DNA of 64,000 bases, taken from the NCBI GenBank assembly GCA_951812955.1, contig OX638340.1, positions 3,392,001 through 3,456,000 on the forward strand, given 5' to 3'. The stretch is from an uncultured Gemmatimonadota bacterium. Its GTDB lineage: Bacteria; JAAXHH01. Positions within the stretch are counted from its first letter, which is position 1, and each line of letters opens with the position of its first letter. This document shows, one piece after another, positions 7,230 to 62,013 of this stretch. A program made the translations under genes and the position numbers. The notes under the pieces are model-generated. The model worked only from the letters and a program-made list of their open reading frames with translations. It was not told where the DNA came from and made no database searches.

Positions 7230-7243
7230 TCATGATGCGCTCG

Positions 7244-19850: not shown

Positions 19851-19887
19851 CGGCGATCCACCGTCGCTCCCGCGGCCTGTCGTCTTT

Positions 19888-42299: not shown

Positions 42300-43250
42300 C
42301 TATCCACCCAATTCGGACACGAGCCCATCGAGTTGCGTTCGATGTTCGTCGGACAGTTCCCAACCCACTGAGTCGACGTTCTGCTCGACCTGGGCCGGTC
42401 GCGTTGCACCGCACAGGACCGACGTGATGCCGGGCTGCCGGGACGTCCAGTGGATGACGAGCTGGGCGAGGGATTTGCCATATTCATCCGCGATAGACTT
42501 CATTCGGCCGAGCATGTCGAGGGTTCGGGCCAGTTCCTCCCCCTGGAACCTGGGATCGTCGTTGCGTGAGTCGCCTTCCGGAAACCGGTGGCCCCTTCCG
42601 TATTTGCCTGTCAGCAGGCCCTTGTACAGCGGCCAGTAGGAGATCACCCCGATGTTGTTATCGCGGCAGTGGGGGAGAATCTGAGCCTCGATGTCGCGGA
42701 TGAGCATGTTGTAGGGCGGCTGATCCGAGTGCAGCGGCGCATGGCGTGCGAAGTCCTCCATTTGCGCCACGTCGTAATTGCTTACGCCAATCGCCCGGAT
42801 CTTGCCCTGTTCTTTCAGTTCGGCCAGGGTGACTGCCGTTTCCTCAAAGGGTGTGTTCTCGTCCGGCGCGTGCACCTGGTACAGGTCGATGTAGTCCGTA
42901 TTCAGACGTCGCAGACTCTCCTCGACCTGCTCCAGGACGCGTTTCCTGGAGCTGTCGCGCAGCAGCGTGGTGCCGTCCCAGTACAGTCCGCATTTCGTCG
43001 CAAGGACGATCTCGTCCCGTCGGCCTGAGATAGCCCGGCCTACCAGTCGTTCCGATTCGCCGCTGCGCCCGTACATGTAGGCGGTGTCGATGAGGGTTAT
43101 CCCGCCGTCCATGGCGCTTTCCAGCGCAGCCAGGGACGCGTTGTCGTCGATTCCGGTCCATCCGACGCCGGCCATAGGCCAGCAGCCCATGCCGATGACC
43201 GATACCGACAATCCCGATTCACCGAGCGCTCTGTATTCCATATTCGCCAT
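42300..43250 (-). CDS. Aldo/keto reductase family oxidoreductase
   Basis: MANMEYRALGESGLSVSVIGMGCW... with the AKR catalytic Tyr/Lys context. The track ORF 42300..43571 is an upstream extension. Confidence 0.8.
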   Translation of the reverse strand: MANMEYRALGESGLSVSVIGMGCWPMAGVGWTGIDDNASLAALESAMDGGITLIDTAYMYGRSGESERLVGRAISGRRDEIVLATKCGLYWDGTTLLRDSSRKRVLEQVEESLRRLNTDYIDLYQVHAPDENTPFEETAVTLAELKEQGKIRAIGVSNYDVAQMEDFARHAPLHSDQPPYNMLIRDIEAQILPHCRDNNIGVISYWPLYKGLLTGKYGRGHRFPEGDSRNDDPRFQGEELARTLDMLGRMKSIADEYGKSLAQLVIHWTSRQPGITSVLCGATRPAQVEQNVDSVGWELSDEHRTQLDGLVSELGG

Positions 43251-43411
43251 CCTTTGACGGAAGATCCGGGCACGTTCAGGTCCGTCCGGAGAAGGCCGGC
43301 GGACCGCCCGCGATCGATACGATTTCCAATTGACGAGGTGGGGCGGGAAACATATATTGAATGTAATTACGTGTTCCCGGTACGGTAGAATATACCACGT
43401 AACTTTTAAGC

Positions 43412-43472
43412 ATTCAATCGATATAGACCAGGAAACTGCAGCATAGACCAGGAAACTGCAGTATATACCAGG
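43412..43472. repeat. Tandem repeat, 20-21 nt unit in 3 copies, intergenic
   Basis: ATAGACCAGGAAACTGCAGC occurs twice, followed by a degenerate third copy. Confidence 0.6.
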
Positions 43473-43586
43473 AATAGGCAGTGACCGGCCTTCGGTTGCG
43501 CTCAATCGGTCGACCAGCCGGCAGTTAACTCCGGTAAATCCGAAAAATCTCATAAATCTCATAAATCCCATGGCAGGGAGGTAGAT

Positions 43587-44234
43587 ATGTTGAAAACCGG
43601 TTTAACCCTGATGGTCGCGATGGTTCTTGCGGCGTCTCCGGCAATGGCGGGTTCTCCGACGGTTACCGGCGATTACGTGGAAGTGCGCTCCAACCACATC
43701 CTGGGCGGCGGCTGCACCTATTCGGCGGAAGCCGGCGGCGATGCCAACCAGGCCGTCGTGGCGTGGCGCGTCCGTGACGGAGCGCTGGCCGATCTGTCCG
43801 TCGTTGCCGTCATTCTCGGGAAAGGCAACCTGCAACTCGGTCACCATGCACGCGAAACCGTGCTGCTGATCGACAGCCGGGCCACGCCGACCCAGCGCCA
43901 GGTCTTGAAGAGCACCTTCACGGCACGCTACGGCGAACTTTTCGGTACGGTGAAGACGGTGAAACCCACCGACATTTCCTTCCGCCACGACGGCGGGGAC
44001 ACCTACGCGGTTTCGGTGGACGGCCAGGTTCGCGTTTCTACCCGGACCATGGTTGCGACCGACCATGAGCCCAACTGCGACCGCATGGTTTGGTACGATC
44101 CCTTCACGAAGGACGCGTCGGCTTCGCTGGTCCAGACCGCGGCCCACGCATACAGCGGATCTGACCTGATCGCCACGTGGAGCATCCCGAACAAGCGCAG
44201 CGCTTACGTGGGAACCTTCTCCTTCACGCCGTAA
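43587..44234 (+). CDS. Hypothetical secreted protein
   Basis: Signal peptide MLKTGLTLMVAMVLAASPAMA. Strong RBS GGGAGGTAG. 215 aa. Confidence 0.6.
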   Translation: MLKTGLTLMVAMVLAASPAMAGSPTVTGDYVEVRSNHILGGGCTYSAEAGGDANQAVVAWRVRDGALADLSVVAVILGKGNLQLGHHARETVLLIDSRATPTQRQVLKSTFTARYGELFGTVKTVKPTDISFRHDGGDTYAVSVDGQVRVSTRTMVATDHEPNCDRMVWYDPFTKDASASLVQTAAHAYSGSDLIATWSIPNKRSAYVGTFSFTP

Positions 44235-44377: not shown

Positions 44378-45214
44378 TTGCTGATCACCGCGACCGTCGT
44401 TACGTCGTGCTTCGGCCTGATTCTAAAATCCGCCCACCACAACGGACGAAATGCACTGGCGGTGGGCAGCCTGAATTACGGCGCGGGCGCCGTAATCTCC
44501 GGCCTGCTAATGCTCTTTGACACGGGCTGGGTCTGGCACGGGACCACCATACTGATCGGTGCGGCCAGCGGATTCTTCTATTTCGTAGCCTTCCGATTTC
44601 TGATCCAGGCGCTTCTGCAGGGCGGCGTCGCCGTTACCCTGGCGATCGTTCGCCTGTCCGTCCTGATCCCCATCCTCTGTTCCATCGTAATCTGGTATGA
44701 AGTCCCCAATCTGCCGCAGATTGCGGGAATCATCACGGTTTGCCTCGCACTGCCGCTCCTGACACTCGGCGTGGGCAGGCAGTCCGATCTGTCGCTGCGC
44801 GGCGTCGCCTGGCTGGTCGGAGCCCTCTTCATCACCACGGGATTCTGTCACCTGTCACCGAAGGTATTCAGCGAACTCGCGCCGCAGAGCCAGATGTCGC
44901 TCTACCTATTCTCACTCTTTGCCGTATCCGGATTCATGGGGCTGTGCTACATCTGGTACAAACCGATCCGGGTGCGACTGCCAGAAGTGTGGTGGAGCGG
45001 CATACTGGGCGCGTGCAACGTCGCGGGGACCTGGCTCCTCGTTCTCACGCTCAAGTTCCTCCCCGGTACCGTCGTCTTTCCTTTCGTCAGCGCGGTCGGC
45101 CTTGTCATCACCACGCTCGTGGCTATATTGTACTGGAAAGAACAGGTTCGCAGACTCGCCTACGTCGGCATCGGCCTGACCCTGTTAGCGGTCGTCCTTG
45201 TGAACAGCGGCTGA
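44378..45214 (+). CDS. EamA/DMT-superfamily membrane transporter
   Basis: 10-TM hydrophobic profile with a duplicated EamA-like architecture. TTG start. Confidence 0.6.
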   Translation: MLITATVVTSCFGLILKSAHHNGRNALAVGSLNYGAGAVISGLLMLFDTGWVWHGTTILIGAASGFFYFVAFRFLIQALLQGGVAVTLAIVRLSVLIPILCSIVIWYEVPNLPQIAGIITVCLALPLLTLGVGRQSDLSLRGVAWLVGALFITTGFCHLSPKVFSELAPQSQMSLYLFSLFAVSGFMGLCYIWYKPIRVRLPEVWWSGILGACNVAGTWLLVLTLKFLPGTVVFPFVSAVGLVITTLVAILYWKEQVRRLAYVGIGLTLLAVVLVNSG

Positions 45215-45242
45215 GGCAGGCGGCGATCCGTACGACTGACCG

Positions 45243-45345
45243 CGCGTCGGCGGCGAATCCGCGTTGATTACCGAGCGCGTTGGCGGCGAATCCGCGTCGA
45301 TTGGTGAGCGCGTCGGCGGCGAATCCGCGTTGATTTCCGAGCGCG
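45243..45345. repeat. Tandem repeat, 33-nt unit in 3 copies, intergenic upstream of the PfkB-SIS gene
   Basis: CGCGTCGGCGGCGAATCCGCGTTGATTACCGAG units at 45243, 45276 and 45309. An AT-rich promoter-like region follows. Confidence 0.8.
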
Positions 45346-45531
45346 GTCTGCTATATATGTAAAACACAATTTGAATGTTGATTCTTATTTTGATCAATGT
45401 TGACAATATAAAAATCCACGTTTCTAGATAAAGCGGCCACCCGCGTGTTACAACCGCGAGTATCGGGCGCAACTACGCAACACGGAGCGGAAGTACCACT
45501 CCCCCGCGCAGTGCCTTAGAGGTGATATTTC

Positions 45532-47271
45532 GTGATCCTGGACATTGACCGCACAGGCAGGATAGTGGGCATCGGCAGCAACGTCATGGACGTGATCTAT
45601 CGGGTAAACCGAATCGCGGGACCGGAGGAAAAAACCTATATCCTGCCGAATGAACATGGCGCGGTCGTGACCGAGGTAACAGGCGGCGTGACGCTGAACC
45701 ATCTGGCGTGGACGGCCCAGATGGGCGTCCCCGCCGGTCTTTTTGGATTTCAAGGGGACGACCGGTTCGGCGCTATGATCCGGGACGAAATGGACCGCCA
45801 CGGTATCGATCGGTCGGCCGTTCGGGTCCTCGAGGGCCGCGCATCCGGTTTTTCGGTGGTGAACGTGGCCGACGACGCGGACCGGGCAATTTACATGGCC
45901 CGCGCTCTGACGGCGGAGACCTCGGCTGCGGACGTAGAGACGTATTTTGCCGGGTACATTTGTTCCGCCGCGATGGTGACGACGGAAATATCCCAACTCC
46001 CGCTGGACGCCGTTATCGCGGTCCTGCGCATAGCCCGCGAGGCTGGCGTGCCGACCGTGCTGGACGTGGACGTCCCGCCGGAATTCGCCACCGAAGTGGC
46101 CGGACTCGGTTCCGCCGAAGATTTCGAAGAGGCCCTGCGTCTCGCCGACGTCGTGAAACCCGCCAAGGCCGCCGCATCGCAGATAGCAGCAGCCGAGAGT
46201 TCAGAGGAACGGGCCGAGCGTATTTTCAACCGGTACGGCGCCCGGCTGGTGGCCATCACCGAAGGGGCGCAAGGTTCGGTCGTCACCGACGGGAAGCAGA
46301 CGATCCGCACGCCTGCGAAACCCGTGGAAGCCCGGGACACCACCGGCGCGGGAGATGCCTTTCTGGGCGGCCTGATTGCGGGTATATACCACGGATTTGC
46401 GTTACAGGACATCGCATCGCTCGCCAATGCCTGCGGCGCTGTATGTTGCCGCATCCCGGGGGCCTTCCCGCAACTGGGTTCGAGCCGGGACGACGTTATC
46501 AGCCTGTACGAAGGCACTCCGATTCCTGCCGGGACCGCATCGGAATCGGTTGCAGGTCCGGAACCTGGGATCATCCCGGAGTCGGGGATCGTCCCGCAGT
46601 CGGAGATCGTCCCGCAGTCGGGGGTTGTGACCGAAAGCCTTGACGATTCCGGTTCAGCGACCGCGGGTGCAGCCGGCCTGAATGCCGTGCGGCGGACCGC
46701 TGCCGCCCTTTCCGGACTGTATGACGGCATGTCTGACACCTACTTTGACGAAGCCGTCGCGATTATCCGGAAGGCAGAAGCGGCCGGCGGGCGCGTACAC
46801 GTCACCGGTGTGGGGAAGTCCCGGCACATCGGCCACAAGCTGGCGGCCACGCTGCAGAGCACGGGAACGAAGGCGTATTTCCTCGATCCAGTCGACTGCA
46901 ACCACGGAGACAGTGGACAGGTAGCGGAAGGGGACGTGGTCGTCGCCCTGTCTCACAGCGGGGAGACGGAGGAACTGATGGCAGCCGTTGAAACCCTCGC
47001 CGCGATCGGTGCGATACTCATCGCAATCACCGGGCACGCCGCATCCAGTCTGGCCCGTTCGAGTGCGGCGACCCTGCACGTTCCCGTTGACCGCGAAGGC
47101 GGTCCCCTGGGACTCGCGCCGACCGTGAGCACGTCCTGCCAACTCGCCGTGGCCGACGGACTCGCCATGGCCCTGAAGGCCTGCCGTGGGTTTACCCGGG
47201 AAGACTTCGCCCGGTACCATCCCGGCGGGCGTATTGGAAGGCAACTGCGGGACAGTGAAGCCGAAAACTGA
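45532..47271 (+). CDS. Fusion protein: N-terminal PfkB-family carbohydrate kinase plus C-terminal SIS (KpsF/KdsD-like sugar-phosphate isomerase) domain
   Basis: PfkB motif DTTGAGDAF in the N-terminal half. SIS motif VTGVGKSRHIGHKLAATLQSTGT...ALSHSGETEEL in the C-terminal half. The linker carries 15-nt tandem repeats (PESGIVPQSEIVPQSGVV). GTG start with an AGGTGA RBS. Confidence 0.75.
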   Translation: MILDIDRTGRIVGIGSNVMDVIYRVNRIAGPEEKTYILPNEHGAVVTEVTGGVTLNHLAWTAQMGVPAGLFGFQGDDRFGAMIRDEMDRHGIDRSAVRVLEGRASGFSVVNVADDADRAIYMARALTAETSAADVETYFAGYICSAAMVTTEISQLPLDAVIAVLRIAREAGVPTVLDVDVPPEFATEVAGLGSAEDFEEALRLADVVKPAKAAASQIAAAESSEERAERIFNRYGARLVAITEGAQGSVVTDGKQTIRTPAKPVEARDTTGAGDAFLGGLIAGIYHGFALQDIASLANACGAVCCRIPGAFPQLGSSRDDVISLYEGTPIPAGTASESVAGPEPGIIPESGIVPQSEIVPQSGVVTESLDDSGSATAGAAGLNAVRRTAAALSGLYDGMSDTYFDEAVAIIRKAEAAGGRVHVTGVGKSRHIGHKLAATLQSTGTKAYFLDPVDCNHGDSGQVAEGDVVVALSHSGETEELMAAVETLAAIGAILIAITGHAASSLARSSAATLHVPVDREGGPLGLAPTVSTSCQLAVADGLAMALKACRGFTREDFARYHPGGRIGRQLRDSEAEN

Positions 47272-47290
47272 AGGTTCAGGAAGGAACGCC

Positions 47291-48199
47291 ATGATTGCCG
47301 AAGCACCGAAAGCAAATACCGAAACACCCGAAATAAGACTGATCGCTTTCGATCAGGACGATACGGCCCTGCTGCCCGACGGCAAGCCCTCCTCCGAGGG
47401 TTTGGCCGCCATCGAAGCCGCTCTCGACCAGGGACTGATCGTGAGCTCCGTGAGCGGCCGCAACATAGATCGCAGCGGCGAGCCCTTCAGCGGCGCTCGT
47501 CAGCTGTTCGACCGGCTCTACCTGATCGCCAACAACGGCGGGATCATACTCGGGCCAGCCGAAGGGGGCCGAAGACCGCTGCTGTTCGAAAAGCGCATGT
47601 CTACCGGCGCTTTCCTGGACCTGCTCGACTTCATCGAAGAAAACGGTTTCAATTTCGTATACAGCTGGCTGCGCGTGACGGAGGCCGGTCCCCTGGACAG
47701 CGTAATAGCCGACCGGTATACTCCGTCCATCGCAGCCATAGAGGAGCAGAGCCGCGCCGCCGTCGACCGGGACGACGACCTGCTGGCGAAACTGAGACAG
47801 GGCGCATACCCGCCGCCGCCCAAGATGCTGATTCTTCCAGGCCTGGAACGGCGCGAGGCGGTGCTGTCGGAGTTGAAGGCCCGTTTCGACTCCCGTCTCT
47901 ACCTCGTCAAGACGAATCCGGACCGGATCGAAGCCATGCACGCCGACGTCAACAAGAAGGTCGCCGTGGAGTTCATCGCGCGCGAGCACGGAATATCCCT
48001 CAATAACGTGATGGCAGTCGGGGACGGCGACAACGACCTGCCCATGCTCTTCAACGCGGGCCTGGGGGTGATCATGGAAAACGCCCAGGACGCGGTCAAA
48101 GAAGCGGGCCGGGCGCAAGGTCTGGTCATTGCTCCGCCGAACCACGAGAACGGCTTTGCCTGGGCGGTACGTCGATACGCGTTAAACAACGGCCGTTAA
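47291..48199 (+). CDS. Cof-type HAD-IIB phosphatase
   Basis: IAFDQDDT...(DxD motif)...VMAVGDGDNDLPM. RBS AGGAAGG. The track ORF 47186 start is an upstream extension. Confidence 0.8.
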   Translation: MIAEAPKANTETPEIRLIAFDQDDTALLPDGKPSSEGLAAIEAALDQGLIVSSVSGRNIDRSGEPFSGARQLFDRLYLIANNGGIILGPAEGGRRPLLFEKRMSTGAFLDLLDFIEENGFNFVYSWLRVTEAGPLDSVIADRYTPSIAAIEEQSRAAVDRDDDLLAKLRQGAYPPPPKMLILPGLERREAVLSELKARFDSRLYLVKTNPDRIEAMHADVNKKVAVEFIAREHGISLNNVMAVGDGDNDLPMLFNAGLGVIMENAQDAVKEAGRAQGLVIAPPNHENGFAWAVRRYALNNGR

Positions 48200-48325
48200 G
48201 CGGCGACTGTTGAACCGCGACCGTCGAGCGGTAGCTGATGAGCGGGACGCGTCGATTCGTGTAATAACGACGGACGGTGGCCGGCATACCGGACCGTGCC
48301 CGCGGCTCTAACGGAACTCCTCCCC

Positions 48326-50284
48326 ATGACCACTTCCCTTCTTGATCATCTTAGATCTTCCCTGCTGGTGGCTGATGGCGCGAGCGGAACCATGCTGTAC
48401 GCCCGCGGCGTTCCGATAGAGGTCTGTTTCGACGAGATCAACCAGAGCCGACCCGACCTGATCCGGCGTATCCACGAGGAATACGTGGATGCGGGAGCCG
48501 GTCTGATCGAGGCCAACACCTTCGGGGCCAATGCCCTGTCTCTCTCCAAGTACAACCTCGAGGACCAGGCGGAATCACTGAACGCCCGCGGCGTCGAGAT
48601 CGCCCGGGCGGCGGCAGGATCCCGGGCCTACGTAGCGGGGGCCGTCGGGCCGGCCCGCGGCCTACCCCACCTGGAATACACCGAAGCGGACTACGACAGG
48701 GTCTACCGTGAACAGATCTCGGCCCTGGCCGGCGGCGGTGCGGACGCGATCATCCTGGAGACCTTCCTCCGGCTCAATGAACTGACCGGGGCGCTGGCGG
48801 TCTGCCGCGACGTCTGCGACCTCCCCGTGATCTGCCAACTCGCGGTGGACCAGTCGGGACAGACCGATGACGGGTACGGCGTCGCGAATGCCTTCGATCA
48901 ACTGCGCGCGGCCGGCGCCGACGTGGTGGGGGTGAACTGCCGCAGCGGCCCCAAGGGCCTGCTGGACGCGCTTGCGCCGGTTCCCCTTGAGGATGGGCTC
49001 ATCCTCTCGGCCTTCCCCAACGCAGGCTCCCCGGTATACGTGGACGGACGATTCATCTACGAGGCTACGCCCGAGTACTTCGCAACGAGCGCGCTCCGGC
49101 TGCGCGACCAGGGCGTGCGCCTGATCGGCGGGTGCTGCGGGACCATGCCCGATCACGTCCGGGCCATGGCCCAGGCGCTCGAAGGCAGGGAGATCGTCAC
49201 GCGGAAGAAGGTCGTCCCGGTGGCAGTCCGAGCTCCGGCCAGCAAGGCCAGCACGGCCAGCAAGGCTCCCCCGGCCCGCCCTGACCGCCCTGGCCGACCG
49301 ACTCGTCCTGGCCGTCCCGACCAACCTGGTCAGCCTGACCACACTGACTATCCGCCGCGCAAACCCCCGGCGGCCGAACCGTCGATCGTGGACCTGGTCC
49401 GCAAGCGGGTGACCGTCATCGTTGAGCTCGACCCGCCCCGTGACCTGGACCACGAACCCATCGTAAGGGGCGCCATGGCCCTGAAGGAGGCGGGCGCCGA
49501 CGCCTTGACCATGGCCGACAATTCCCTCGCCGTCACGCGGATCAGCAACATGGCCATGGGACAGATCGTCAAGGAGGAAGCGGGTATCCGGCCGCTGTTG
49601 CACATCACCTGCCGGGACAGGAACCTGGCCAGCCTGCAGTCCCAGGTGCTCGGCCTGCATGCCCTGGGTATCGACCACGTCCTCGCCGTCACGGGCGACC
49701 CCGTCAAATTCGGCGATCAGCCGGGAGCCAGCAACGTCTACGACGTTTCCTCATTCGAACTGATCAGACTAATAAAGCAAATGAACGAGGGAGTGGGTTT
49801 TTCGGGCCGGCCCTTAAACGGCAAAACCGGATTCACCGTCGCGGCGGCCTTCGACCCCAATGGTACCAACCTGGACAGAAGGATCCGGAGGCTGGAACGA
49901 AAAGTCGAGGCAGGCGCCGACCTGATCATGACGCAACCGCTGTTCGACCGACGCCAGGCCAGGGCGCTTTACGAAGCAACCCGCGATGCCGGCGTCCCCA
50001 TACTGCCGGGCGTCATGCCCCTGGTCAGCGAAGGAAACACGGAATTCCTCCACAACGAAGTACCGGGATTCGTGGTGACCGACGACGTTCGTGCGCGCAT
50101 GGCCCGCGCGGGCCGGGGTAGAAAGGCCCGACGGGAGGGCATCGCAATCGCCAGGGAGATCATCGAATCCGTCCTGACCTACTTCAACGGTCTATACCTG
50201 ATCACGCCCTTCAACCGTTATCCCATGACGGTGGAGCTGACGGAATTCGCCCTGCAGGGCGTTGAACGCTCCGAATCCCGATAG
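48326..50284 (+). CDS. Bifunctional homocysteine S-methyltransferase / 5,10-methylenetetrahydrofolate reductase
   Basis: N-terminal Hcy-binding domain (GGCCGT Zn-binding Cys triad region). A Pro-rich linker. C-terminal MTHFR domain (LHITCRDRN..., PGVMPL). Confidence 0.8.
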   Translation: MTTSLLDHLRSSLLVADGASGTMLYARGVPIEVCFDEINQSRPDLIRRIHEEYVDAGAGLIEANTFGANALSLSKYNLEDQAESLNARGVEIARAAAGSRAYVAGAVGPARGLPHLEYTEADYDRVYREQISALAGGGADAIILETFLRLNELTGALAVCRDVCDLPVICQLAVDQSGQTDDGYGVANAFDQLRAAGADVVGVNCRSGPKGLLDALAPVPLEDGLILSAFPNAGSPVYVDGRFIYEATPEYFATSALRLRDQGVRLIGGCCGTMPDHVRAMAQALEGREIVTRKKVVPVAVRAPASKASTASKAPPARPDRPGRPTRPGRPDQPGQPDHTDYPPRKPPAAEPSIVDLVRKRVTVIVELDPPRDLDHEPIVRGAMALKEAGADALTMADNSLAVTRISNMAMGQIVKEEAGIRPLLHITCRDRNLASLQSQVLGLHALGIDHVLAVTGDPVKFGDQPGASNVYDVSSFELIRLIKQMNEGVGFSGRPLNGKTGFTVAAAFDPNGTNLDRRIRRLERKVEAGADLIMTQPLFDRRQARALYEATRDAGVPILPGVMPLVSEGNTEFLHNEVPGFVVTDDVRARMARAGRGRKARREGIAIAREIIESVLTYFNGLYLITPFNRYPMTVELTEFALQGVERSESR

Positions 50285-50424: not shown

Positions 50425-52458
50425 TCAGGAAGCCGGCCGATTGCGGTAGTAAAGGTAGGATACGGCGGTGAGGATAGCGCTCAGGGCGAGGAAGCCGATG
50501 ATGCGATACAGCGTGTCCAGCATCATGAGGTCGAAGACGAAGGCTTTCACCACGGTGCATCCGAAGTAGACGATGGCCGCGGCGCGAAGTGCCCGGATAT
50601 CCAGCAAACGCCCGAGGAGCATGACGAGGGTCGCGCCAATCAGCCAAACGCCCGAAACGGCCAGCTGGCGCAAGTTTTCCAATTGATTCAGCGAACCATC
50701 CCCAAGTGTGATGATCCGGTACTGGAAATAGCTCAGGATTTCCACCGTACCCCAGACCAGGAGAAGAAACGACCAGGCCACGTGAAAGATCGAAAACAGC
50801 ACGCGGTCACGCCTCGTTTCGTCGCTCCTCGTTTCCTCGCTCCTCGTTTCGTCGCTCCCTGTTTCCTCGCTCCTCGTTTCATCGCGGCCCTGCAGCATGC
50901 CGGCGCAGACAAGCAGCAGTCCTCCCACCACCCAGTAAGCACCGGTGCGCAACGATAGAATCGGCACATAAGCAGAAACGAGGTTGGACACGATCGTCCC
51001 GCCGTGGAGGAATATCGCTACGAACGAAAGGGCAGCCAGTGCCGTCCCGGCGTGACGGACCGGTCGCGTGCCGTAGTGGACACCAAACCAGAACAACGCG
51101 AAGGCTTCGAGGGCCCAGGCAATGATCACGCCGTAACTGAAGAAAAAGCTTATCGGTGCGAGCACCGCAAGCAGCACGGCTACCGTCGCGTGCTCCGCGG
51201 CCGCGGGCCGGTCATCGGTTCGCCGGACAATCCACGCCGTGAGCCCGAAGTACACCAGCGATAGGACCGCGGTCGCGACACCCCCGGAATAGTCCGCAGC
51301 GTGCTGCTCGTACTGAAACTGGACGCCGAAAAAGTCCCACAGGCCTTCCGTGTGCCACGTAAGGCGCATGAGCATCACGTAGTAGCCCAGTACGTTGATC
51401 GCTATTGCCGCCCGCCGCCACCACCTGTTCCCCGGGTCGCCCGTGACCGAGCGCAAGAGGTTCGTCCCCGCAAACAGCATCCACCAAAGCGTCAAAAAGG
51501 CCAGGGCGGTTCCGAGACCTTCGGGCAGGTCCGCCCGGAACGACCAGGTCAGGTAGATTCCGTAAGTGGCCGCGACAGCCAGCAGTTCGAGCAGCCGCCA
51601 TCTGCGCCGCCTCACCAGGATGGCGATCAGGCCGGCGTCGAGCAGCGTAAGGTATACGAAGAGACCGAGGGTGTTCAGTTCGGCCGTGACGAGGAGGAGG
51701 GGGGTCAGGAATCCGCCGGCCCATCCCAGCAGGGCGATGGCCCGCGCGTCGTAGTACAGGGAAATCAGCAGGGCGGCGGCCGTTACCAGGGTCATGAGGA
51801 AAAAGGCGACGGGCTGCGGCACAAGATGGTAGAAGTCGAAAGCTGCGTAGATCGACAGGTATAGAATCGCCACGCCCGCGCCGGTCAGCCCATGGGAGAA
51901 AACGGACATTTGACGCCGATGGAATCGGTAGCCACCGGCGATCAGCAACATGCCGGCCGCTCCGCCCAGGATCACGCGCGCGGTTTCATTCAACCAGTCG
52001 TTGTCGAAAGCATATTTCAGGAAGAATCCCGCGGCGAGAATGAGCGCCAGGGCGCCCGCACGGTTCAACAGCTTGCCGCCGAAAAGAATCTCCCACTCTT
52101 CTCGGGTGCGTGGCCGCAGCATGTGGGCAACCCGGCCGGGCGTTCGATGCGGTACGGGTTCACTCGCCAGTGCCCCTCCCGCCAGTGCCCCTCCCGCCAG
52201 TGCCCCTCCCGCTAGTGCCCCTCCCGCCGCCGGAGATTCCTCCGTTGTTTCTTCTATCGTTTCTTTTGCCGTTTCCTTCGTGGTCTCTTCCGTTTCTTCT
52301 GTCGTCTCCTCAACTCCCCGTCCGGCTGGCGCCGTACCGGTTGTCCCGGTCTTCCGTCTTATGACCTCCTCGAGTTTCCGGACTCGTCCCGATAGAGACA
52401 GGTACGTCCCGACGAGGAAAAGGATTAGCAAGATGTTGAAAACGATCAGTAGTTCCAT
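50425..52458 (-). CDS. DUF2339-domain polytopic membrane protein
   Basis: 677 aa with many TM helices. An N-terminal coiled/low-complexity region carries in-frame 15-nt tandem repeats (GGALA in 4 copies, EETTE-like repeats). Confidence 0.65.
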   Translation of the reverse strand: MELLIVFNILLILFLVGTYLSLSGRVRKLEEVIRRKTGTTGTAPAGRGVEETTEETEETTKETAKETIEETTEESPAAGGALAGGALAGGALAGGALASEPVPHRTPGRVAHMLRPRTREEWEILFGGKLLNRAGALALILAAGFFLKYAFDNDWLNETARVILGGAAGMLLIAGGYRFHRRQMSVFSHGLTGAGVAILYLSIYAAFDFYHLVPQPVAFFLMTLVTAAALLISLYYDARAIALLGWAGGFLTPLLLVTAELNTLGLFVYLTLLDAGLIAILVRRRRWRLLELLAVAATYGIYLTWSFRADLPEGLGTALAFLTLWWMLFAGTNLLRSVTGDPGNRWWRRAAIAINVLGYYVMLMRLTWHTEGLWDFFGVQFQYEQHAADYSGGVATAVLSLVYFGLTAWIVRRTDDRPAAAEHATVAVLLAVLAPISFFFSYGVIIAWALEAFALFWFGVHYGTRPVRHAGTALAALSFVAIFLHGGTIVSNLVSAYVPILSLRTGAYWVVGGLLLVCAGMLQGRDETRSEETGSDETRSEETRSDETRRDRVLFSIFHVAWSFLLLVWGTVEILSYFQYRIITLGDGSLNQLENLRQLAVSGVWLIGATLVMLLGRLLDIRALRAAAIVYFGCTVVKAFVFDLMMLDTLYRIIGFLALSAILTAVSYLYYRNRPAS

Positions 52459-52684: not shown

Positions 52685-53776
52685 TTGATGTCCACGGTCT
52701 ATCGCGTCGGCATAATCGGGTGCGGCAGCATCTCGCACCTCCACATGAAGGGATACCTGGGCGAAGAGCGGTTCGAGGTCGTCGCACTATCGGACCCGGT
52801 TGCCGAGGCCAGGAAGGATTTCGGTGACCGCTACGGAATCGAAAAACGCTATGCCGATGTCCGTGAGATGATGGACACCGAGGGCCTGGACGTCGTCAGC
52901 ATCTGCACCTGGCACAAGCTGCACGCCCCCCTGACCATCGCCGCCTGCGCGCGTCGGCCGAAGGCCATCCTGTGCGAGAAGCCCATGGCCGTCAACATGG
53001 GGGAGTGCGACGAGATGATGATCGCGGCGCGGCGGAACGACGTGAAGCTCGCCATCGCCCACCAGCGCCGTTTCAATCCGGTCTGGACCGACGCCCGGAA
53101 CCTGGTGGCGGAAGGGGCGATCGGCGACGTGCGCCACGTCCACTGCAGTGGCAGCCAGGGCCTGCTGAACGACTGCTCCCACATGTTCGATTTCATGCGC
53201 TACGTCCTGGGCGATCCCGCGCCGGAGTGGGTGATGGGGAACATCGAACGCAAGACCGACCGGTACGAGCGGGATATCCGCATCGAGGACCGCAGCGCGG
53301 GAATCGTGGGCTTTGACAACGGCGCCGTGGGACAACTCCTGCAGGAGCTTCATCCGGAACGCCGCCAGGGCGGTTACCTCTACGGAACTGACGGCATGAT
53401 GGACGTGAACGAGCAGCGCGTTCTGCTTATCAATTCGAAGACCGGCGGCTGGGAGGAACGGCCGTCCACCGGCGAGGATCCGAGTGTGGGCCAGGCCGTG
53501 GAACTGGCTGACTGGATCGAAGGCAAGTCGGAACACCGGGGAGAGGCCTCGAACGGCCGGGCTGCCGTGGAGATCATCATGGGGATCTACGAGTCGGCGC
53601 GGCTTCACGAGGTCGTCCAGATGCCCGTGCGCACCCACAGTTCGCCCATCGAGGAAATGCTCGAGGCTGGCGACCTGCCCGTGGAACGCCCCGGCCGGTA
53701 CGACATTCGCGCCTTCCTCCTGCGCGGGGAGTCCATGCAGGGTGAGGAGCCGGACGAAGAAGATGAGGAAGAATGA
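52685..53776 (+). CDS. Gfo/Idh/MocA-family oxidoreductase
   Basis: RVGIIGCGSISHLHMKGY Rossmann N-terminus and an acidic C-terminal tail. Confidence 0.8.
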   Translation: MMSTVYRVGIIGCGSISHLHMKGYLGEERFEVVALSDPVAEARKDFGDRYGIEKRYADVREMMDTEGLDVVSICTWHKLHAPLTIAACARRPKAILCEKPMAVNMGECDEMMIAARRNDVKLAIAHQRRFNPVWTDARNLVAEGAIGDVRHVHCSGSQGLLNDCSHMFDFMRYVLGDPAPEWVMGNIERKTDRYERDIRIEDRSAGIVGFDNGAVGQLLQELHPERRQGGYLYGTDGMMDVNEQRVLLINSKTGGWEERPSTGEDPSVGQAVELADWIEGKSEHRGEASNGRAAVEIIMGIYESARLHEVVQMPVRTHSSPIEEMLEAGDLPVERPGRYDIRAFLLRGESMQGEEPDEEDEEE

Positions 53777-53789
53777 CCGGTCACGGTCC

Positions 53790-53868
53790 CGTGACCACGC
53801 TCAGACCGACGAGACCCGCGACCACGCTCAGACCGACGAGGCCCGTGACCACGCTCAGCAGGGCGAAG
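53790..53868. repeat. Tandem repeat, 27-nt unit in 3 copies, intergenic
   Basis: CGTGACCACGCTCAGACCGACGAGACC-like units at 53790, 53817 and 53844. Confidence 0.75.
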
Positions 53869-53930
53869 TTCGATCCGAGGCGGATATCGGCGGAGCAGGC
53901 GACGGTGCACAGATCGGCGAAGCACGCAAA

Positions 53931-54929
53931 ATGGCGGAGATCGGCCGAACGGGGTTGATGGTCAGCCGCCTGGGTCTGGGCGGCGCACCGCTGGCCGGTC
54001 TGTACCAGGGGGTTTCCGACGAGCAGGCCTCCCGGGTTGTGAACACCTACCTCGATCACGGCCCCGGATTTATCGACACGGCCCCGCTCTACGGCAGCGG
54101 CGTGAGCGAGACAAGGTTGGGCGCCGTACTATCGGAGCGAGTCCGCAATGCGCGCGTATTCTGCGACGGTCGCGGTTCCTTTGTGCTCGCCACCAAGGTG
54201 GGCCGCCTCCTCGTGCCCGACCCGGCGCGGGACCAGGACGTGTGGTCTGAGGATCTCCCGCCCGTCGGCCCCGTCTTCGACTACAGCTACGACGGCACGC
54301 TACGGTCTCTCGATGAGAGTCTCGCTCGCCTTGGCCTGGATAAGGTGGATATCCTCCATATCCACGACCCGGACAACCACTACGATGAGGCGATGAGGGG
54401 CAGCTACCGGGCGCTCGTAAGAATGCGCGACGAGGGAGTCATCCGGGCGGTCGGCGTTGGCATGAACCAGGCGAAAATGCTGGCCCGTTTTTCCCAGGAA
54501 GGTGACTTCGACTGTTTTCTTTGTGCGGGCAGATACACCCTGGTGGACCACACGGCGCTCAAGCGGCTGCTGCCCCTGTGCGAAGAACGCAAGATCAGCC
54601 TCATTATCGGCGGGCCCTACAACAGCGGCATCCTGGCGCAGGGCGCTGTGGAAGGGGCGAAGTTCGATTACCGGAAAGCACCGCCCGGGATCGTGGAGCG
54701 GGTTCGTCGCGTCGAAACGGTGTGCGGCCGCCACGGCACGCCCCTGAAGGCGGCGGCGCTGCAGTTCCCCCTGGCCCATCCAGCGGTGGCAGCGGTCATT
54801 CCGGGTGCGCGTTCGCCTGAGGAAGTGGATGAGAACGTGGCGATGGCGGAGTTTGAGATTCCGGCGGATTTCTGGGCGGAACTTCGACAGGAAGGGTTGA
54901 TCCCTGACGAGGCGCCCACGCCCGGATAG
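53931..54929 (+). CDS. Aldo/keto reductase family oxidoreductase
   Basis: MAEIGRTGLMVSRLGLGGAPL... N-terminus. The track ORF 53484 start is a long Arg-rich spurious extension. Confidence 0.8.
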   Translation: MAEIGRTGLMVSRLGLGGAPLAGLYQGVSDEQASRVVNTYLDHGPGFIDTAPLYGSGVSETRLGAVLSERVRNARVFCDGRGSFVLATKVGRLLVPDPARDQDVWSEDLPPVGPVFDYSYDGTLRSLDESLARLGLDKVDILHIHDPDNHYDEAMRGSYRALVRMRDEGVIRAVGVGMNQAKMLARFSQEGDFDCFLCAGRYTLVDHTALKRLLPLCEERKISLIIGGPYNSGILAQGAVEGAKFDYRKAPPGIVERVRRVETVCGRHGTPLKAAALQFPLAHPAVAAVIPGARSPEEVDENVAMAEFEIPADFWAELRQEGLIPDEAPTPG

Positions 54930-55128
54930 TGAAGTAGGTCGCATGTATATCTAAAAACGCGGAAAAATATATTGTCAATATTGATGAAAATAACAATCAA
55001 CCTATAAATCCGGTTTTGATATATATGAGGGACGCCCCTCGCCACGGTCCGCTGCCGGTAGTGTGCGCCTCGCGCCCGGCTGGCTCCGTGCCCCTCAGTC
55101 CGCGAAACGCACTTGAAAGGAGATCCCA

Positions 55129-55485
55129 ATGACCGCATCTGAGAACGCATCTGAAGCCACTCCCCAACGCTATGGCATGGTCCTCAAGGTCAAGCCTGAC
55201 CGGATCGAGGAATACAAGGCATACCACGCCGAGGTCTGGCCCGGCGTTGCGAAGAGGATCACGGAAAGCAACATCACCAACTACTCCATCTATCTGAAGG
55301 ACGATTACCTCTTCTCCTATTTCGAGTACGTCGGGGACGATTTCGAGGCGGACATGGCTAAAATGGCCGCCGACCCGGTCACGCAGGAGTGGTGGGACGT
55401 GATGATGCCGATGCAGGACCCCCTGCCAACGCGGAAGGAAGGCGAATGGTGGGCGAATATGGAGGAAGTCTTTCACCAGGATTGA
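55129..55485 (+). CDS. rhaM: L-rhamnose mutarotase (RhaM/DUF718 family)
   Basis: MVLKVKPDRIEEYKAYHAEVWPGV...YSIYL...EWWDVMMPMQ. RBS AAAGGAGA. Confidence 0.75.
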   Translation: MTASENASEATPQRYGMVLKVKPDRIEEYKAYHAEVWPGVAKRITESNITNYSIYLKDDYLFSYFEYVGDDFEADMAKMAADPVTQEWWDVMMPMQDPLPTRKEGEWWANMEEVFHQD

Positions 55486-55778
55486 GTACAAACACTTCCC
55501 AGACGGACTTTCATATGTTCGTTCGTCTTAGACCGTTGCCAATGAACCGATTGTCGATTATGTTTTCGGGTACTACCCATCCGGTATTGTTTGAGAAATA
55601 ACAGTCCGGTATTGTGCGAGTACTACTCATCCGGCATCGTGCGAGTAATTCTTTTCAGGTATTGAATGAACGCACCAATGATAAGGTTTGAGAAAAGTTA
55701 ATGATGAGATTAAAGAAGAGTTTTAAAAGAAAACTCAGGATATCATAGGAAAACATAGGAGAACATAGGAGAACGTCC

Positions 55779-56672
55779 ATGGCCCTGACTGAAGCGCAAC
55801 TGGCTGAATTCCACGACCGCGGATTGGTGGTCGTGGAAGACGTGCTGGCCGACGCCGATCTCGATCCCGTGATCGACGCGATGACGGAGTATGTCGACCT
55901 GCAGGCACGGAAACTGCAGGCCGAGGGCAAGATCGCCGACCTGCATGAAGACGAACCCTTCCTGACACGATACGCCCGGTTGTTCGCCCAAAGCACGGAG
56001 ATCGGCCACGGGATGGATATCTACGACCTGCGGGCGAAGGCGGTCTTCGATTTCCTGCGGAACGACAACCTGCTCGACGCCGTGGAATCCCTGGTGGGAT
56101 CCGAAATCACCTGCTCGCCGATCCAGCACCTGCGGGCCAAGCCGCCGTCCCGCCTTGACGCCAGCCCGTCCTATAACGTGCCCTGGCACCAGGATTCCGG
56201 GGTGAGCTGGGCGGAGTCCGACAAGACCCTGGCGCTGACCTGCTGGCTGCCCCTCGTGGACGCCACGGTGGAGCGGGGCTGCCTGGAGGTGATCCCGGAC
56301 GTGATCAAGGTCGGCCATCTCGACCACGTGTCGGACGCCGGAACGCGTATAAAACCGGACCTCATGCCCGAGACCGAAGCGCTACCGGCTGAAGTGCGCA
56401 AGGGCGGGGTCGTTTTCCTGAGCCAGTATACACCGCACCGTTCGACGCCCAACCTGACGCAGTGGGATGTGCGCTGGAGCCTTGACCTGCGGTACGTGGC
56501 CTACGGTGAGCCGACTGGGCGGCCCTTCTTTCCCGATTTCTGCGTGCGGAGCCGCACCCATCCTGAACGGGTCCTGACCGATCACCAGGTCTGGGCCGAC
56601 AGCTGGGTCGCGGCCCTTGAGGAACAAATACGCAATCCCAAGCAGGCCCACCGTGTCGCCCAGGAACCCTGA
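55779..56672 (+). CDS. PhyH-family Fe(II)/2-oxoglutarate dioxygenase, paralog 4
   Basis: EFHDRGLVVVEDVL... and the PWHQD iron motif. Confidence 0.8.
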   Translation: MALTEAQLAEFHDRGLVVVEDVLADADLDPVIDAMTEYVDLQARKLQAEGKIADLHEDEPFLTRYARLFAQSTEIGHGMDIYDLRAKAVFDFLRNDNLLDAVESLVGSEITCSPIQHLRAKPPSRLDASPSYNVPWHQDSGVSWAESDKTLALTCWLPLVDATVERGCLEVIPDVIKVGHLDHVSDAGTRIKPDLMPETEALPAEVRKGGVVFLSQYTPHRSTPNLTQWDVRWSLDLRYVAYGEPTGRPFFPDFCVRSRTHPERVLTDHQVWADSWVAALEEQIRNPKQAHRVAQEP

Positions 56673-56940
56673 GGACACCTGATCCAAGAGGCACACCATG
56701 CTTTGAGGCCTGACCTCAGGCGCCAGGTTCGGCGCCCTTCTCGGCAGTCTGATCATTCCCGGTCTGGGACAGTTGTACCAGGGTCGCAGGCCGGCCGCGG
56801 TCATACACTTCATCCTCGCGGTCGTGATCTGGTTGATCGGCTACGGCTGGATCGTTCATCTGTATTCCGCGGTCGACGCGGCATTTCAGGCACCGCGCGG
56901 CGAAGGCTGCAAAACGTAAACCTTACAGTCCTGGTTACGG

Positions 56941-57056
56941 TGAACGCATCGGCGCCCGCCGGCAGGGGTGCGCGTCTCTGATCGCATCGGCGCCCGCTGG
57001 CAGGTGCGCGTCTATGAACGCATCGGTGCTCGCCGGCAGGGGTGCACGTCTGCGAA
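56941..57056. repeat. Tandem repeat, ~37-nt unit in 3 copies, intergenic upstream of the NHL-repeat gene
   Basis: GAACGCATCGGCGCCCGCCGGCAGGGGTGCGCGTCT-like units at 56941, 56979 and 57015. Confidence 0.75.
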
Positions 57057-57098
57057 CCATAAACCAGACAAACCACATTCAACAGGAAGAGGTCATGC

Positions 57099-57965
57099 AT
57101 GAGTTTCGGTAACGGGGCCTACAGGTACGAGGTGCAGGAAAACTGGTGGAAGCTTCCTGAAGGGTGGTCCTTCGGATGGATAACCGGAGTCGCCTGCGAT
57201 TCAAAGGACCAGGTGTACGTCTATTCCCGAAGCGAGCATCCCCTGGTGGTCTTCGACCGCGACGGAACGTTTGTCAAGACCATCGGCGACGGCATACTGA
57301 AGGACGCTCATGGTATATACATCGACGGAGAGGACAACATCTTCCTGGTCGACTGGCTGGACCACTGCGTCCGCAAGTTCGACGCGGACGGGAACCAGGT
57401 CCTGGTGATTGGCACGCCCGGTGTTCCGAGCGACAACGACGGTGATCCTTTCCGCAAGCCGACGGAAGCGGTCGTCGCGCCGAACGGAGATATCTACGTG
57501 TCCGACGGGTACGACAACGCCCGGGTACACCGGTACGACGCCGAAGGGAACCACATCCACTCCTGGGGCAGCTGGGGTGACGGCCCCTCCCAGTTCGCGC
57601 TGAGCCACTGCGTCCGCATTGACCGGCATGACCGGCTGTGGGTGTGTGATCGTGAAAACCAGCGCATCCAGCTATTCGACCTGGAAGGCAAGTTTATCGA
57701 GGAGCGACACGTTCCTGGCAAACCCGACACCGTCTACTTTGATCCGGTAGAAGATATAGCGTACGTGGCCGAGCTGGAACAACAGGTGGGTATCTACACC
57801 CTGGACGGCGACCTGGTCAGCAGCTGGGGCGGCGGTAAGCGGAGCGATCGGCCGGGCGAATTCGCCGGCTGTCCCCACGGCATCTGGATGGACTCCCACG
57901 GCGACCTCTATGTCGGCGAAGTTCAGGCCGACGCCAGGCTGCAGAAGTTCGTGAGATCGAGGTAA
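57099..57965 (+). CDS. NHL-repeat beta-propeller protein
   Basis: Repeated ...G.F..P.G.A.D..G..YV.D..N.R...D motifs over 288 aa. Confidence 0.75.
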   Translation: MSFGNGAYRYEVQENWWKLPEGWSFGWITGVACDSKDQVYVYSRSEHPLVVFDRDGTFVKTIGDGILKDAHGIYIDGEDNIFLVDWLDHCVRKFDADGNQVLVIGTPGVPSDNDGDPFRKPTEAVVAPNGDIYVSDGYDNARVHRYDAEGNHIHSWGSWGDGPSQFALSHCVRIDRHDRLWVCDRENQRIQLFDLEGKFIEERHVPGKPDTVYFDPVEDIAYVAELEQQVGIYTLDGDLVSSWGGGKRSDRPGEFAGCPHGIWMDSHGDLYVGEVQADARLQKFVRSR

Positions 57966-58070
57966 TTAGGCAATCGAGGACACTCGGCGACCGAGGTAAT
58001 CCGGCAATCGAGGACACTCGGCGATCGAGGTAATTCGGCAATCGAGGACACTCGGCGACCGAAGTAATAC
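57955..58070. repeat. Tandem repeat, 33-nt unit in about 3.3 copies, beginning at the NHL gene stop codon
   Basis: CGAGGTAAT(T/C)(A/C)GGCAATCGAGGACACTCGGCGAC units at about 57960, 57993 and 58026. Confidence 0.8.
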
Positions 58071-58210
58071 GTGCGATCGGGGGAATACGCAGTACGGTTC
58101 CGGTCGACGAGTCCTCAGGTCCTACAGATTCCCTTCTGGCCCTGCAATTCCACGTAGCAGATCCCTTCTAGGTTTAGACCAGGATTCACCAAAACCTCCG
58201 GCTGCTGGAA

Positions 58211-60613: not shown

Positions 60614-60892
60614 AGAGTGGATTTTCGACGAACTGAAGTGTGAATTACCGACAACGTAATGTGTGGATTTACGACGGAACGCACTTCTTTGAATACGATC
60701 AGTCCATTACGGCATCGGGCCGCTCCTCCTGACCTGTCGATGCACCTTTCCTGCTGGAAGCTATTTCACCGGTAATTGTCTTTCCATGTGGCCCCCTCAC
60801 TTTCTCCTTGATAATATCCCTGCCGTTTCATCATTTTAGCTATTCGTTTTTGACACTCCATTGATACTCCTGACTCCAGTATAGGGGCGTTC

Positions 60893-61723: not shown

Positions 61724-61850
61724 AGTGATCAATCGGCCAGGGGCACGATTCCAGGGCACGCTGCCGGGCCGCATGCGGAATGGTCACCGCGTGAACCTTG
61801 ATTATATTAGTCGGAAGAGTCATGGCAGTTCTCGAATAAAAAACTTAAAA

Positions 61851-61874
61851 CCGCAGAAACTGCGGCATTTTCGG
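61851..61874 (+). terminator. Candidate Rho-independent terminator after the amidohydrolase gene
   Basis: CCGCAG-aaa-CTGCGG hairpin followed by cATTTTcgg. Confidence 0.45.
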
Positions 61875-62013
61875 TATCCGCAGCAACTTTAGCATCTGGA
61901 GTACCAGTAGCATCCGCGTGAACCGCGTGAACCGCGTCAACTGCGGCACCTGTAGCAACCACGGCATCGATAGCATATGATGAACGCACGATATCACGCT
62001 CAAAGGAGTACCC

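Follow-up and report, generated by a model that had tools for sequence, protein, structure and literature searches.

Several described systems bring together a phosphosugar isomerase of the SIS fold, a sugar kinase and a phosphatase of the haloacid dehalogenase (HAD) superfamily. In the ADP-heptose pathway, GmhA, HldE and GmhB supply the SIS isomerase, the PfkB kinase and the HAD phosphatase, respectively, and HldE is itself a fusion protein. Phage synthesis of UDP-D-arabinofuranose uses a single-domain arabinose-5-phosphate isomerase (API), the kinase AfhE and the HAD phosphatase AfhF, which are encoded together, and a pyrophosphorylase, with D-arabinose 5-phosphate (A5P) as the central intermediate (PMC13326640). 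A catabolic arrangement is found in the Rbl locus of Citrobacter rodentium, which encodes a pentose kinase, the KpsF-type isomerase RblI and an ABC transporter (PMC12307932). The arabinose operon of Bacillus subtilis further encodes AraL, a HAD phosphatase of low specificity that hydrolyses A5P and for which a role in detoxification has been proposed (PMC3207120). Here we describe a locus in a 64,000-nucleotide (nt) stretch, called the window in the following, of an uncultured Gemmatimonadota bacterium (contig OX638340.1, positions 3,392,001 to 3,456,000), where a PfkB kinase and a SIS domain of apparent API type form a single polypeptide encoded directly upstream of a Cof-type HAD phosphatase. 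We tentatively read the fusion, with a confidence just short of an even chance, as a bifunctional catabolic or salvage enzyme that would convert a free pentose, probably D-arabinose, to A5P and further to D-ribulose 5-phosphate (Ru5P). Whatever the exact sugar, feeding a pentose into central metabolism is the most likely function, and not the synthesis of cell-envelope sugars. The elements of the locus are, in window coordinates:

45532 to 47271, plus strand: PfkB–SIS fusion gene, an uninterrupted open reading frame (ORF) for a predicted bifunctional protein of 579 amino acids (aa)
45565 to 46464, plus strand: kinase domain, aa 12-311, ribokinase fold
46537 to 46656, plus strand: inter-domain linker, aa ~336-375, predicted to be disordered, with four tandem hexapeptide units
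46663 to 47247, plus strand: SIS domain, aa ~378-572, KpsF/KdsD/c3406 type, no CBS domains
47291 to 48199, plus strand: Cof-type HAD-IIB phosphatase, 302 aa, assigned by Pfam, NCBIfam and motifs

A first-pass annotation of the DNA had proposed that a PfkB kinase is fused here to a KpsF/KdsD-type SIS domain, and Pfam and NCBIfam matches along a single ORF bear this out. The gene starts with GTG at 45532, preceded by a ribosome binding site (GAGGTGA, 45519-45525), and ends with TGA at 47269-47271; the kinase domain is followed by the linker and the C-terminal SIS domain. The undetected stop codon or frameshift between the two domains that the annotation had considered is absent from the ORF. Searching 1.84 billion representatives exhaustively with phmmer yielded 682 matches at E ≤ 1e-30. 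More than 120 homologous clusters at 90% identity have the identical two-domain architecture. Since the E-values are convincing and so many clusters agree, chance, a frameshift or a misassembly can be ruled out. Among the best 150 of the 682 matches, full-length PfkB→SIS proteins fall into about 35 clusters at 50% identity, three proteins have the reverse order SIS→PfkB (P0162 and P0166 by Pfam, P0244 from the match positions) and two possess an extra N-terminal domain. The sources named include Gemmatimonadetes (about 80% identity), Zixibacteria, Latescibacteria, Poribacteria, Myxococcota, Binatia and Acidobacteriota. The PfkB–SIS fusion is thus a conserved family present in at least six phyla, of which the window locus is one ordinary member. 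The component superfamilies (PfkB, API-type SIS, Cof-type HAD) are already known and the new element is the fusion itself. The annotation had also raised the possibility of a common, characterised family: it is common and conserved indeed, but we found no characterised member in the literature on PfkB+SIS fusions, D-arabinose kinase or Kdo (3-deoxy-D-manno-octulosonate) catabolism. The supplements of the D-arabinan paper do not reveal the families of a 'putative isomerase and kinase' mentioned there, and automated names given by JGI read 'arabinose-5-phosphate isomerase GutQ / sugar kinase'. Scans of genome and metagenome contigs gave, among the matches listed, mostly distant PfkB kinases, and the close Gemmatimonadota genomes were not among them.

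In an AlphaFold2 model (40 family members) the protein folds into two confident domains, most ten-residue blocks having a predicted local distance difference test (pLDDT) value >90. Residues 336-375 are at pLDDT <50, and the model predicts this segment to be a flexible, disordered tether between the domains. No single PDB entry covers both halves (Foldseek TMq ≤ 0.46). The repeat expansion that the annotation had noticed in the linker is real: four in-frame 18-bp units (46558-46629) encode PEPGII, PESGIV, PQSEIV and PQSGVV, and Tandem Repeats Finder reports a period of 18 with about 3 copies and 84-91% matches. Within the family, the linker varies more than any other part: it measures 24-29 aa in relatives of 60-66% identity and up to 108 aa in P0074, other lineages expand unrelated units (GVEPV, PGAAS (two to six copies), GPVTAATGPDDA), and P0001, although 97% identical, has one hexapeptide unit fewer than the protein in the window. 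Roughly 30 tandem-repeat arrays, coding and intergenic, are present in the 64-kb window. Because length and unit vary and the genome is rich in repeats, we attribute the expansion to a genome prone to slippage and a tether under no constraint, and not to any function of the repeat.

The SIS domain matches the Pfam SIS family at aa 421-546 (1.9e-23) and the NCBIfam models KpsF/GutQ (TIGR00393; aa 420-572, 1.7e-48) and KdsD (1.8e-47), together with a third model of this group (4.1e-45). Only model positions 1-153 of 268 are covered for TIGR00393, with 165.6 bits against a cut-off of 203.7; its CBS part is unmatched, and Pfam detects no CBS domains in the fusion. Characterised single-domain APIs (5uqi, which we take to be c3406 of E. 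coli CFT073, and 3etn) likewise lack the CBS pair. The best relatives in the PDB are 5uqi (2.7e-37), the SIS domain of E. coli KdsD (2xhz, 7.9e-32) and the B. fragilis API (3etn, 1.9e-21). Identity to the solved APIs is 45-47%, and the motifs GVGKS, HGDxG, SxSGET, E..PLGLAPT.ST and YHPGG align with the API structures. The catalytic set K429, H458, E481, E522 and H563, which aligns with K59, H88, E111, E152 and H193 of KdsD, is invariant in 40 sequences down to 45% identity. With about 45% identity, the motifs and all five catalytic residues in common with the single-SIS APIs (5uqi, 3etn, the SIS part of 2xhz), the domain is, as judged from its sequence, of the arabinose-5-phosphate isomerase type. 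It differs from them in forming the C-terminal half of a 579-aa kinase fusion and in having HGDSG where the known APIs have HGDLG. As an aside, one paper (PMC13326640, section 27) cites PDB 5uqi as a match for an N-acetylmuramic acid 1-phosphate (MurNAc-1-P) uridylyltransferase; the copy of the PDB used for this analysis lists 5uqi as a 198-aa 'phosphosugar isomerase', and the citation is probably a slip. An identity with GmhA, or with HldE on the kinase side, is ruled out by the model scores: among the 25 NCBIfam matches listed there is no GmhA model, the PDB matches include no GmhA chain, and Pfam SIS_2 reaches only 23 bits, under its cut-off.

Such an isomerase might also be the organism's own KdsD, with the kinase salvaging D-ribulose or D-arabinose into the Kdo pathway and ultimately into lipopolysaccharide (LPS). 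The domain is KdsD-like, and the host phylum is of the diderm type and presumably needs Kdo. The window, however, contains no kdsA, kdsB or kdsC gene, canonical SIS+CBS proteins of the KdsD type are abundant as separate families, and members of the PfkB–SIS family are also found beside the GH172, aldolase and ABC-transporter partners described below. A precedent is provided by Citrobacter, where a D-ribulokinase gene lies beside that of a KpsF-like isomerase, but there growth on D-ribulose does not require the isomerase, which lies off the pathway (PMC12307932). The Rbl locus differs in further respects, since RblK is an FGGY-type D-ribulokinase, the genes are unfused and the substrate is D-ribulose (PMC12307932). 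Taken together, we consider a role in Kdo supply very unlikely.

The kinase half matches Pfam PfkB (PF00294) with 5.4e-41 (141.3 bits, cut-off 25.8). Ribokinase 1rkd is the top Foldseek match of its model (TM 0.84), and the best PDB sequence matches are the ribokinases 8cqx, 4x8f and 1gqt; identity to ribokinases is 23-28%. With RbsK (1rkd, 8cqx, 4x8f) it shares the fold, the GG pair, the sugar-binding Asp/Asn/Glu, the TxGxxG motif and the DTxGAGD motif with the catalytic Asp and the anion hole, and the positions D20, G51-G52, N56, E152, T243/G245/G248 and D269-TTGAGD275 are invariant in 40 sequences. In contrast to RbsK, it lacks NXXE, a motif for Mg2+ and phosphate binding that is regarded as a hallmark of the ribokinase family: the PNETEA stretch of ribokinase is aligned with PAKAAA (K209-P-A-K212-A-A), and no fused or stand-alone member of this kinase sub-clade has an acidic residue at the NXXE position. 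The ribose contacts N14 and K43 of ribokinase are likewise replaced, by V18 and V53. The sub-clade, which also holds stand-alone kinases of about 325 aa, is marked by motifs of its own, GGVTLNHLAW (GGV.xN), RAIYM (R.IYM), TEISQLP (TE.SQLP) and LKP.K/R.A, and is of mechanistic interest for its lack of NXXE. All NCBIfam kinase matches stay below the equivalog cut-offs. IolC comes first with 112 bits, followed by ribokinase TIGR02152 (104.5 bits against 299.65) and PRK11142 (85.1 against 341), while RfaE domain I (TIGR02198) reaches 50.2 bits against 345 and only over aa 206-310. NCBIfam finds no cytidylyltransferase-like domain in the fusion.

The genes accompanying the fusion vary with its clade. 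The clade of the window (≥59% identity; the window, L088, L004, L089 and L090) has the order aldo-keto reductase (AKR, minus strand), DUF1326 protein, EamA/DMT transporter, fusion and HAD-IIB phosphatase. In marine or Zixibacteria-like relatives a Methyltransf_32 gene is inserted between EamA and the fusion (L090:7196-8017 and L089:6017-6811), and in L090 it overlaps the start codon of the fusion. Within the Acidobacteriota clade (about 45% identity) a glycoside hydrolase of family GH172 is encoded directly downstream in L007, with an 8-nt overlap, and in L092, and a GH127-like gene lies upstream of the fusion in L093-L095. GH172 comprises exo-α-D-arabinofuranosidases and α-D-fructofuranosidases (PMC10509167). 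In the clade formed by Myxococcota, Binatia and Acidiferrales (38-46% identity) an aldolase-like gene is located directly upstream in 15 of 15 loci (L008-L016, L098-L103). Its product of 355-380 aa (L010:8915-9982, for example) is a very divergent protein with a fold of the N-acetylneuraminate lyase/dihydrodipicolinate synthase (NAL/DHDPS) type (profile against PDB 5.5e-9). It carries the motif GTTGE, a Tyr conserved within LYDNADIA and, in RGIKVSA, the Schiff-base Lys; the NAL-family 2-keto-3-deoxy-(6-phospho)gluconate (KD(P)G) aldolase 2r91 is among its PDB matches. P0144 (L096:5165-7852) is an 895-aa triple fusion in which a domain of this aldolase-like family (hhalign 7e-56) precedes the kinase-isomerase, and the N-terminus of P0133 is a degenerate copy of the same domain that has lost the catalytic motifs. 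Stand-alone kinases of the sub-clade are flanked by nucleoside hydrolases of the IU type and by DMT sugar transporters (PF06800/PF07168). The actinomycete Catelliglobosispora (L023:10001-11496) has a divergent LacI regulator, an unfused SIS gene of the API type and a canonical ribokinase. In L097:5271-6857 the order is reversed, and a SIS→PfkB fusion whose kinase looks canonical is followed by an ABC sugar transporter. The predicted kinase and isomerase activities are tied together by independent fusions in either domain order and by the unfused, LacI-linked operon of Catelliglobosispora.

These partners bear on the identity of the sugar. NAL-family enzymes interconvert Kdo and D-arabinose plus pyruvate (PMC4016182), and Kdo aldolase is a recognised activity (EC 4.1.2.23, cited in PMC12199768) to which we found no gene assigned in the searched literature; the NAL/DHDPS-like protein is a candidate for this orphan enzyme. 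The same data can be read for a different substrate, for example with a kinase of the KdgK/IolC kind making Kdo 8-phosphate, an aldolase releasing A5P from it and the SIS domain following, or with ribose, ribulose, fructose or mannose as the sugar and a sugar phosphate other than A5P as the substrate of the SIS domain. IolC is the best NCBIfam kinase match, the sugar contacts of ribokinase are not kept, KD(P)G aldolases of the NAL family cleave phosphorylated substrates, and the triple fusion P0144 is compatible with a succession of kinase, aldolase and isomerase; in addition, GH172 releases fructofuranose and the nucleoside hydrolases beside stand-alone kinases release ribose. On the other hand, neither the window nor its clade contains an aldolase, the SIS catalytic set and the best matches of the domain are those of bona fide A5P isomerases, and ribose 5-phosphate and fructose 6-phosphate need no dedicated extra isomerase. 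A fusion of two consecutive steps, kinase and then isomerase, is the simpler reading, and we regard another sugar as unlikely.

The phosphatase gene adjoins the fusion as the first-pass annotation had it. Its start is the ATG at 47291 and not the mechanically assigned GTG at 47186, which leaves 302 aa, the length of the L088 orthologue, and a gap of 19 nt after the fusion stop with a ribosome binding site (AGGAAGGA) at 47278-47285. No terminator-like site is seen in this gap, and co-transcription with the fusion is plausible from the sequence. The protein matches Pfam Hydrolase_3 (PF08282; 2.7e-33, 116.2 bits against a cut-off of 20.9) and the Cof-type model TIGR00099 (99.5 bits, below the subfamily cut-off of 137). 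HAD motifs I, II and IV are intact (DQDDT aa 21-25, SGR aa 55-57, GDGDND aa 244-249), the PDB neighbours are of class IIB (YidA, PfHAD1, BT4131-like), and none of the 19 NCBIfam matches is a class IIIA model of the GmhB/KdsC type. In L004, L089 and L090 the HAD start overlaps the stop of the fusion by 1-4 nt. Such translational coupling in close relatives argues for a real functional link between fusion and phosphatase.

This link is central to an anabolic, heptose-like alternative. The first-pass annotation had seen in the three activities a possible new route to an LPS or glycan precursor, and had pointed to two GT9 heptosyltransferase genes in the window:

17711 to 18772 and 18828 to 19910, minus strand: two GT9 genes, about 26 kb from the fusion

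In its most explicit form, the SIS domain would convert Ru5P to A5P, the PfkB domain would phosphorylate A5P at the anomeric C1 to arabinose 1,5-bisphosphate, in the manner of HldE/HldA with heptose 7-phosphate, and the HAD protein would take off the 5-phosphate and leave D-arabinofuranose 1-phosphate for a nucleotidyltransferase encoded elsewhere. This is the only order in which kinase and phosphatase are not antagonistic, and in every close relative translational coupling links the HAD gene to the fusion. Pentose phosphates are the substrates of some PfkB kinases, weak NCBIfam matches to ribose-1-phosphate kinases are found, and the same chemistry operates in phage UDP-D-arabinofuranose synthesis (PMC13326640). 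For these reasons the three-activity logic is kept as an alternative, but it is not the one we favour. The GT9 genes are indeed present, but they are on the opposite strand and separated from the fusion by more than 20 unrelated genes (RlmN, PHO4, an ABC transporter, a TonB receptor, ribosomal proteins and others). The 64-kb window contains no Kdo, heptose or nucleotidyltransferase genes and no LPS genes near the locus, and no nucleotidyltransferase or glycosyltransferase partner occurs in about 35 related loci. Compared with the ADP-heptose pathway, the SIS domain is of the API type and not of the GmhA type, the HAD protein is a YidA-like class IIB enzyme and not a GmhB-like class IIIA enzyme, and an adenylyltransferase is missing, the match to the RfaE kinase model being weak and partial. 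In the phage pathway the kinase is APH-like and fused to a nucleotidyltransferase and the HAD phosphatase is GmhB-like (PMC13326640), so that only the API component corresponds to the PfkB-type kinase, API and HAD-IIB set described here. The aldolase, GH172, transporter and LacI partners of the same fusion in other phyla, and the nucleoside hydrolases beside the stand-alone kinases, do not fit such a pathway either. We therefore judge the anabolic route quite unlikely, and of the earlier proposal the observation is confirmed and the interpretation partly supported, its link to LPS or glycan precursors being unsupported. Should the route exist, cells would have an equivalent of the phage UDP-arabinofuranose pathway.

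We return to pentose salvage as the preferred reading. An API-type SIS domain needs a pentose with a 5-phosphate and free C1/C2, hence the fused kinase must either make its substrate or consume its product. D-arabinose is proposed because it fits API specificity, the products of GH172, the aldolase chemistry and a ribokinase-like furanose kinase at the same time; with D-arabinose and ATP giving A5P and A5P giving Ru5P, the fusion would join two consecutive steps. From the architecture, motifs, conservation and partner genes we infer which substrate is used, which way the flux runs and what the phosphatase does, as follows. The ribokinase-fold domain would phosphorylate a free pentofuranose on its primary hydroxyl with ATP, converting D-arabinose to A5P. 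The tethered SIS domain would then isomerise A5P to Ru5P, which enters the pentose phosphate pathway. The translationally coupled HAD-IIB protein could be a broad sugar-phosphate phosphatase acting as an overflow valve for excess phosphosugar; this role is suggested by analogy with AraL, although the HAD protein here belongs to another subclass. In the lineage of the window the sugar would probably enter via the upstream DMT-type transporter, and in other phyla it may be supplied by the enzyme of the GH172 α-D-arabinofuranosidase family or by the NAL/DHDPS-type, Kdo-aldolase-like protein. A catabolic direction is suggested by partners that release or import free sugars or otherwise indicate catabolism (glycosidase, pyruvate aldolase, nucleoside hydrolases, transporters, LacI), and by the many sugar-catabolic genes of the window. 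D-arabinose is the C2 epimer of ribose. If N14 and K43 of ribokinase contact the O2/O3 side of ribose, as we assume, their loss would be consistent with D-arabinose as the substrate. The more ambitious combination, in which the D-arabinose to A5P to Ru5P route holds, the aldolase-like protein is a Kdo aldolase and the NXXE-less kinases are a new PfkB class, is possible but doubtful as a whole.

A number of observations weigh against pentose salvage. The choice of substrate draws solely on context and on the intersection of partner specificities. The feeder enzymes (aldolase, GH172) are absent from the window's own clade, and GH172 can release fructose as well. Adjacency of the DUF1326, EamA and AKR genes is weak evidence because longer synteny (the ribosomal protein genes L33 and L28, MoCF, M28 peptidase, SufE) is also kept in the lineage of the window. 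The conserved partner in this clade is a phosphatase, which would oppose a 5-kinase unless it serves as an overflow valve, and tight translational coupling is unusual for a mere safety valve. On the enzyme side, the kinase lacks equivalents of NXXE, N14 and K43, so that its chemistry or substrate may differ from that of ribokinase, and its top NCBIfam match, marginally above ribokinase, is the keto-deoxy-acid kinase IolC. Finally, the KpsF-like Listeria protein 3fxa is annotated only as 'SIS domain protein', and other specificities exist among such isomerases.

The fusion is preceded by two genes and a repeat-containing spacer:

43587 to 44234, plus strand: DUF1326 protein, 215 aa, Pfam 8.9e-10, with an N-terminal segment resembling a signal peptide
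44378 to 45214, plus strand: EamA/DMT-superfamily membrane transporter, 278 aa, Pfam EamA 9e-09
45242 to 45345, unstranded: 33-bp tandem repeat, 3.2 copies, in the 317-bp spacer between transporter and fusion

Both genes are conserved in this position in L004, L088, L089 and L090. The DUF1326 protein has no PDB relative and gave no structural or family clue. Homology of the EamA protein with the DMT sugar transporters found beside stand-alone kinases was considered and rejected for lack of significant similarity. After the 33-bp repeat comes an unusually AT-rich stretch of 85 bp (45346-45430), where a separate promoter for the fusion gene may lie, but a sigma-70 scan of this stretch gave nothing convincing. 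A riboswitch or other RNA element was discarded as well, with no Rfam match at E ≤ 1 in the 317-bp spacer or before the YitJ-like gene mentioned below. Other intergenic tandem arrays with periods of 20-38 bp are found near 9260, 37355, 40713, 42124, 43422 and 50305, and further ones near 55570, 56941, 57958 and 60611; repetitive extragenic palindromic (REP)-like elements, regulatory sites and slippage debris are candidate explanations.

The genes around the locus are mostly those of sugar and sugar-acid catabolism (MR_MLE dehydratases, PhyH, GFO/IDH/MocA, AKR, RhaM, Amidohydro_2). Two regions, 2578-14248 and 52685-63629, are particularly dense in them, with two MR_MLE (enolase-superfamily) dehydratases, four PhyH-family dioxygenases, two GFO/IDH/MocA oxidoreductases, aldo-keto reductases, a RhaM mutarotase, Amidohydro_2, an NHL/SGL-like propeller, a 2-hydroxyacid dehydrogenase and thiamine pyrophosphate (TPP) enzymes, a set that recalls non-phosphorylative pathways of the fucose, rhamnose or arabinose type. 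The mechanical ORF of the aldo-keto reductase upstream of the DUF1326 gene (42300-43571, minus strand) has 423 aa, about 110 more than its 313-aa orthologues in L004 and L088, and the real start is probably near 43241 (MANMEYRALG...). Downstream of the phosphatase gene, at 48296-50284 (plus strand), lies a YitJ-like bifunctional homocysteine S-methyltransferase/methylenetetrahydrofolate reductase (MTHFR) gene with a Pro-rich repeat linker around 49235-49276, conserved in several relatives and missing in L004. Salvage of methionine or methylthioribose (MTR), suggested by this gene and by Methyltransf_32, was rejected on two grounds: a SIS aldose-ketose isomerase requires a distal phosphate as well as free C1/C2, and L004 has no YitJ-like gene. 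A DUF2339 membrane protein with short peptide repeats (GGALA ×4, ETRSEET-like) is encoded at 50425-52458 (minus strand), and repeat-expanded linkers are common in this genome. In the RlmN-like radical-SAM ORF (19888-21126, minus strand) a 66-bp tandem repeat (20910-21122, 3.2 copies, 89% matches) occupies the 5′ end, before the RlmN_N domain that begins at aa 70, and could be an N-terminal repeat extension or reflect a mis-assigned start codon. Lastly, the 800-aa protein encoded at 58211-60613 (plus strand) contains GAF, PAS, HisKA, HATPase_c, receiver and OmpR-type DNA-binding domains and represents a complete two-component pathway in one polypeptide.

D-arabinose and Kdo are abundant in bacterial envelopes, for instance in mycobacterial arabinan and LPS cores, and their recycling in the environment is poorly known; what is known of D-arabinose catabolism is mostly a side activity of the enzymes for fucose. 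If pentose salvage is correct, the family would represent a D-arabinose route that phosphorylates first and then isomerises, unlike the FucI/FucK-type, D-ribulokinase and oxidative routes, and, with the aldolase-like protein as the Kdo aldolase, would provide a first genetic handle on the scavenging of Kdo and D-arabinan by bacteria. A kinase-isomerase with interchangeable feeders (aldolase, GH172, transporters) would be a compact funnel into the pentose phosphate pathway, and hundreds of genes that at present carry only the names 'PfkB family kinase' or 'SIS domain protein' could be annotated better.

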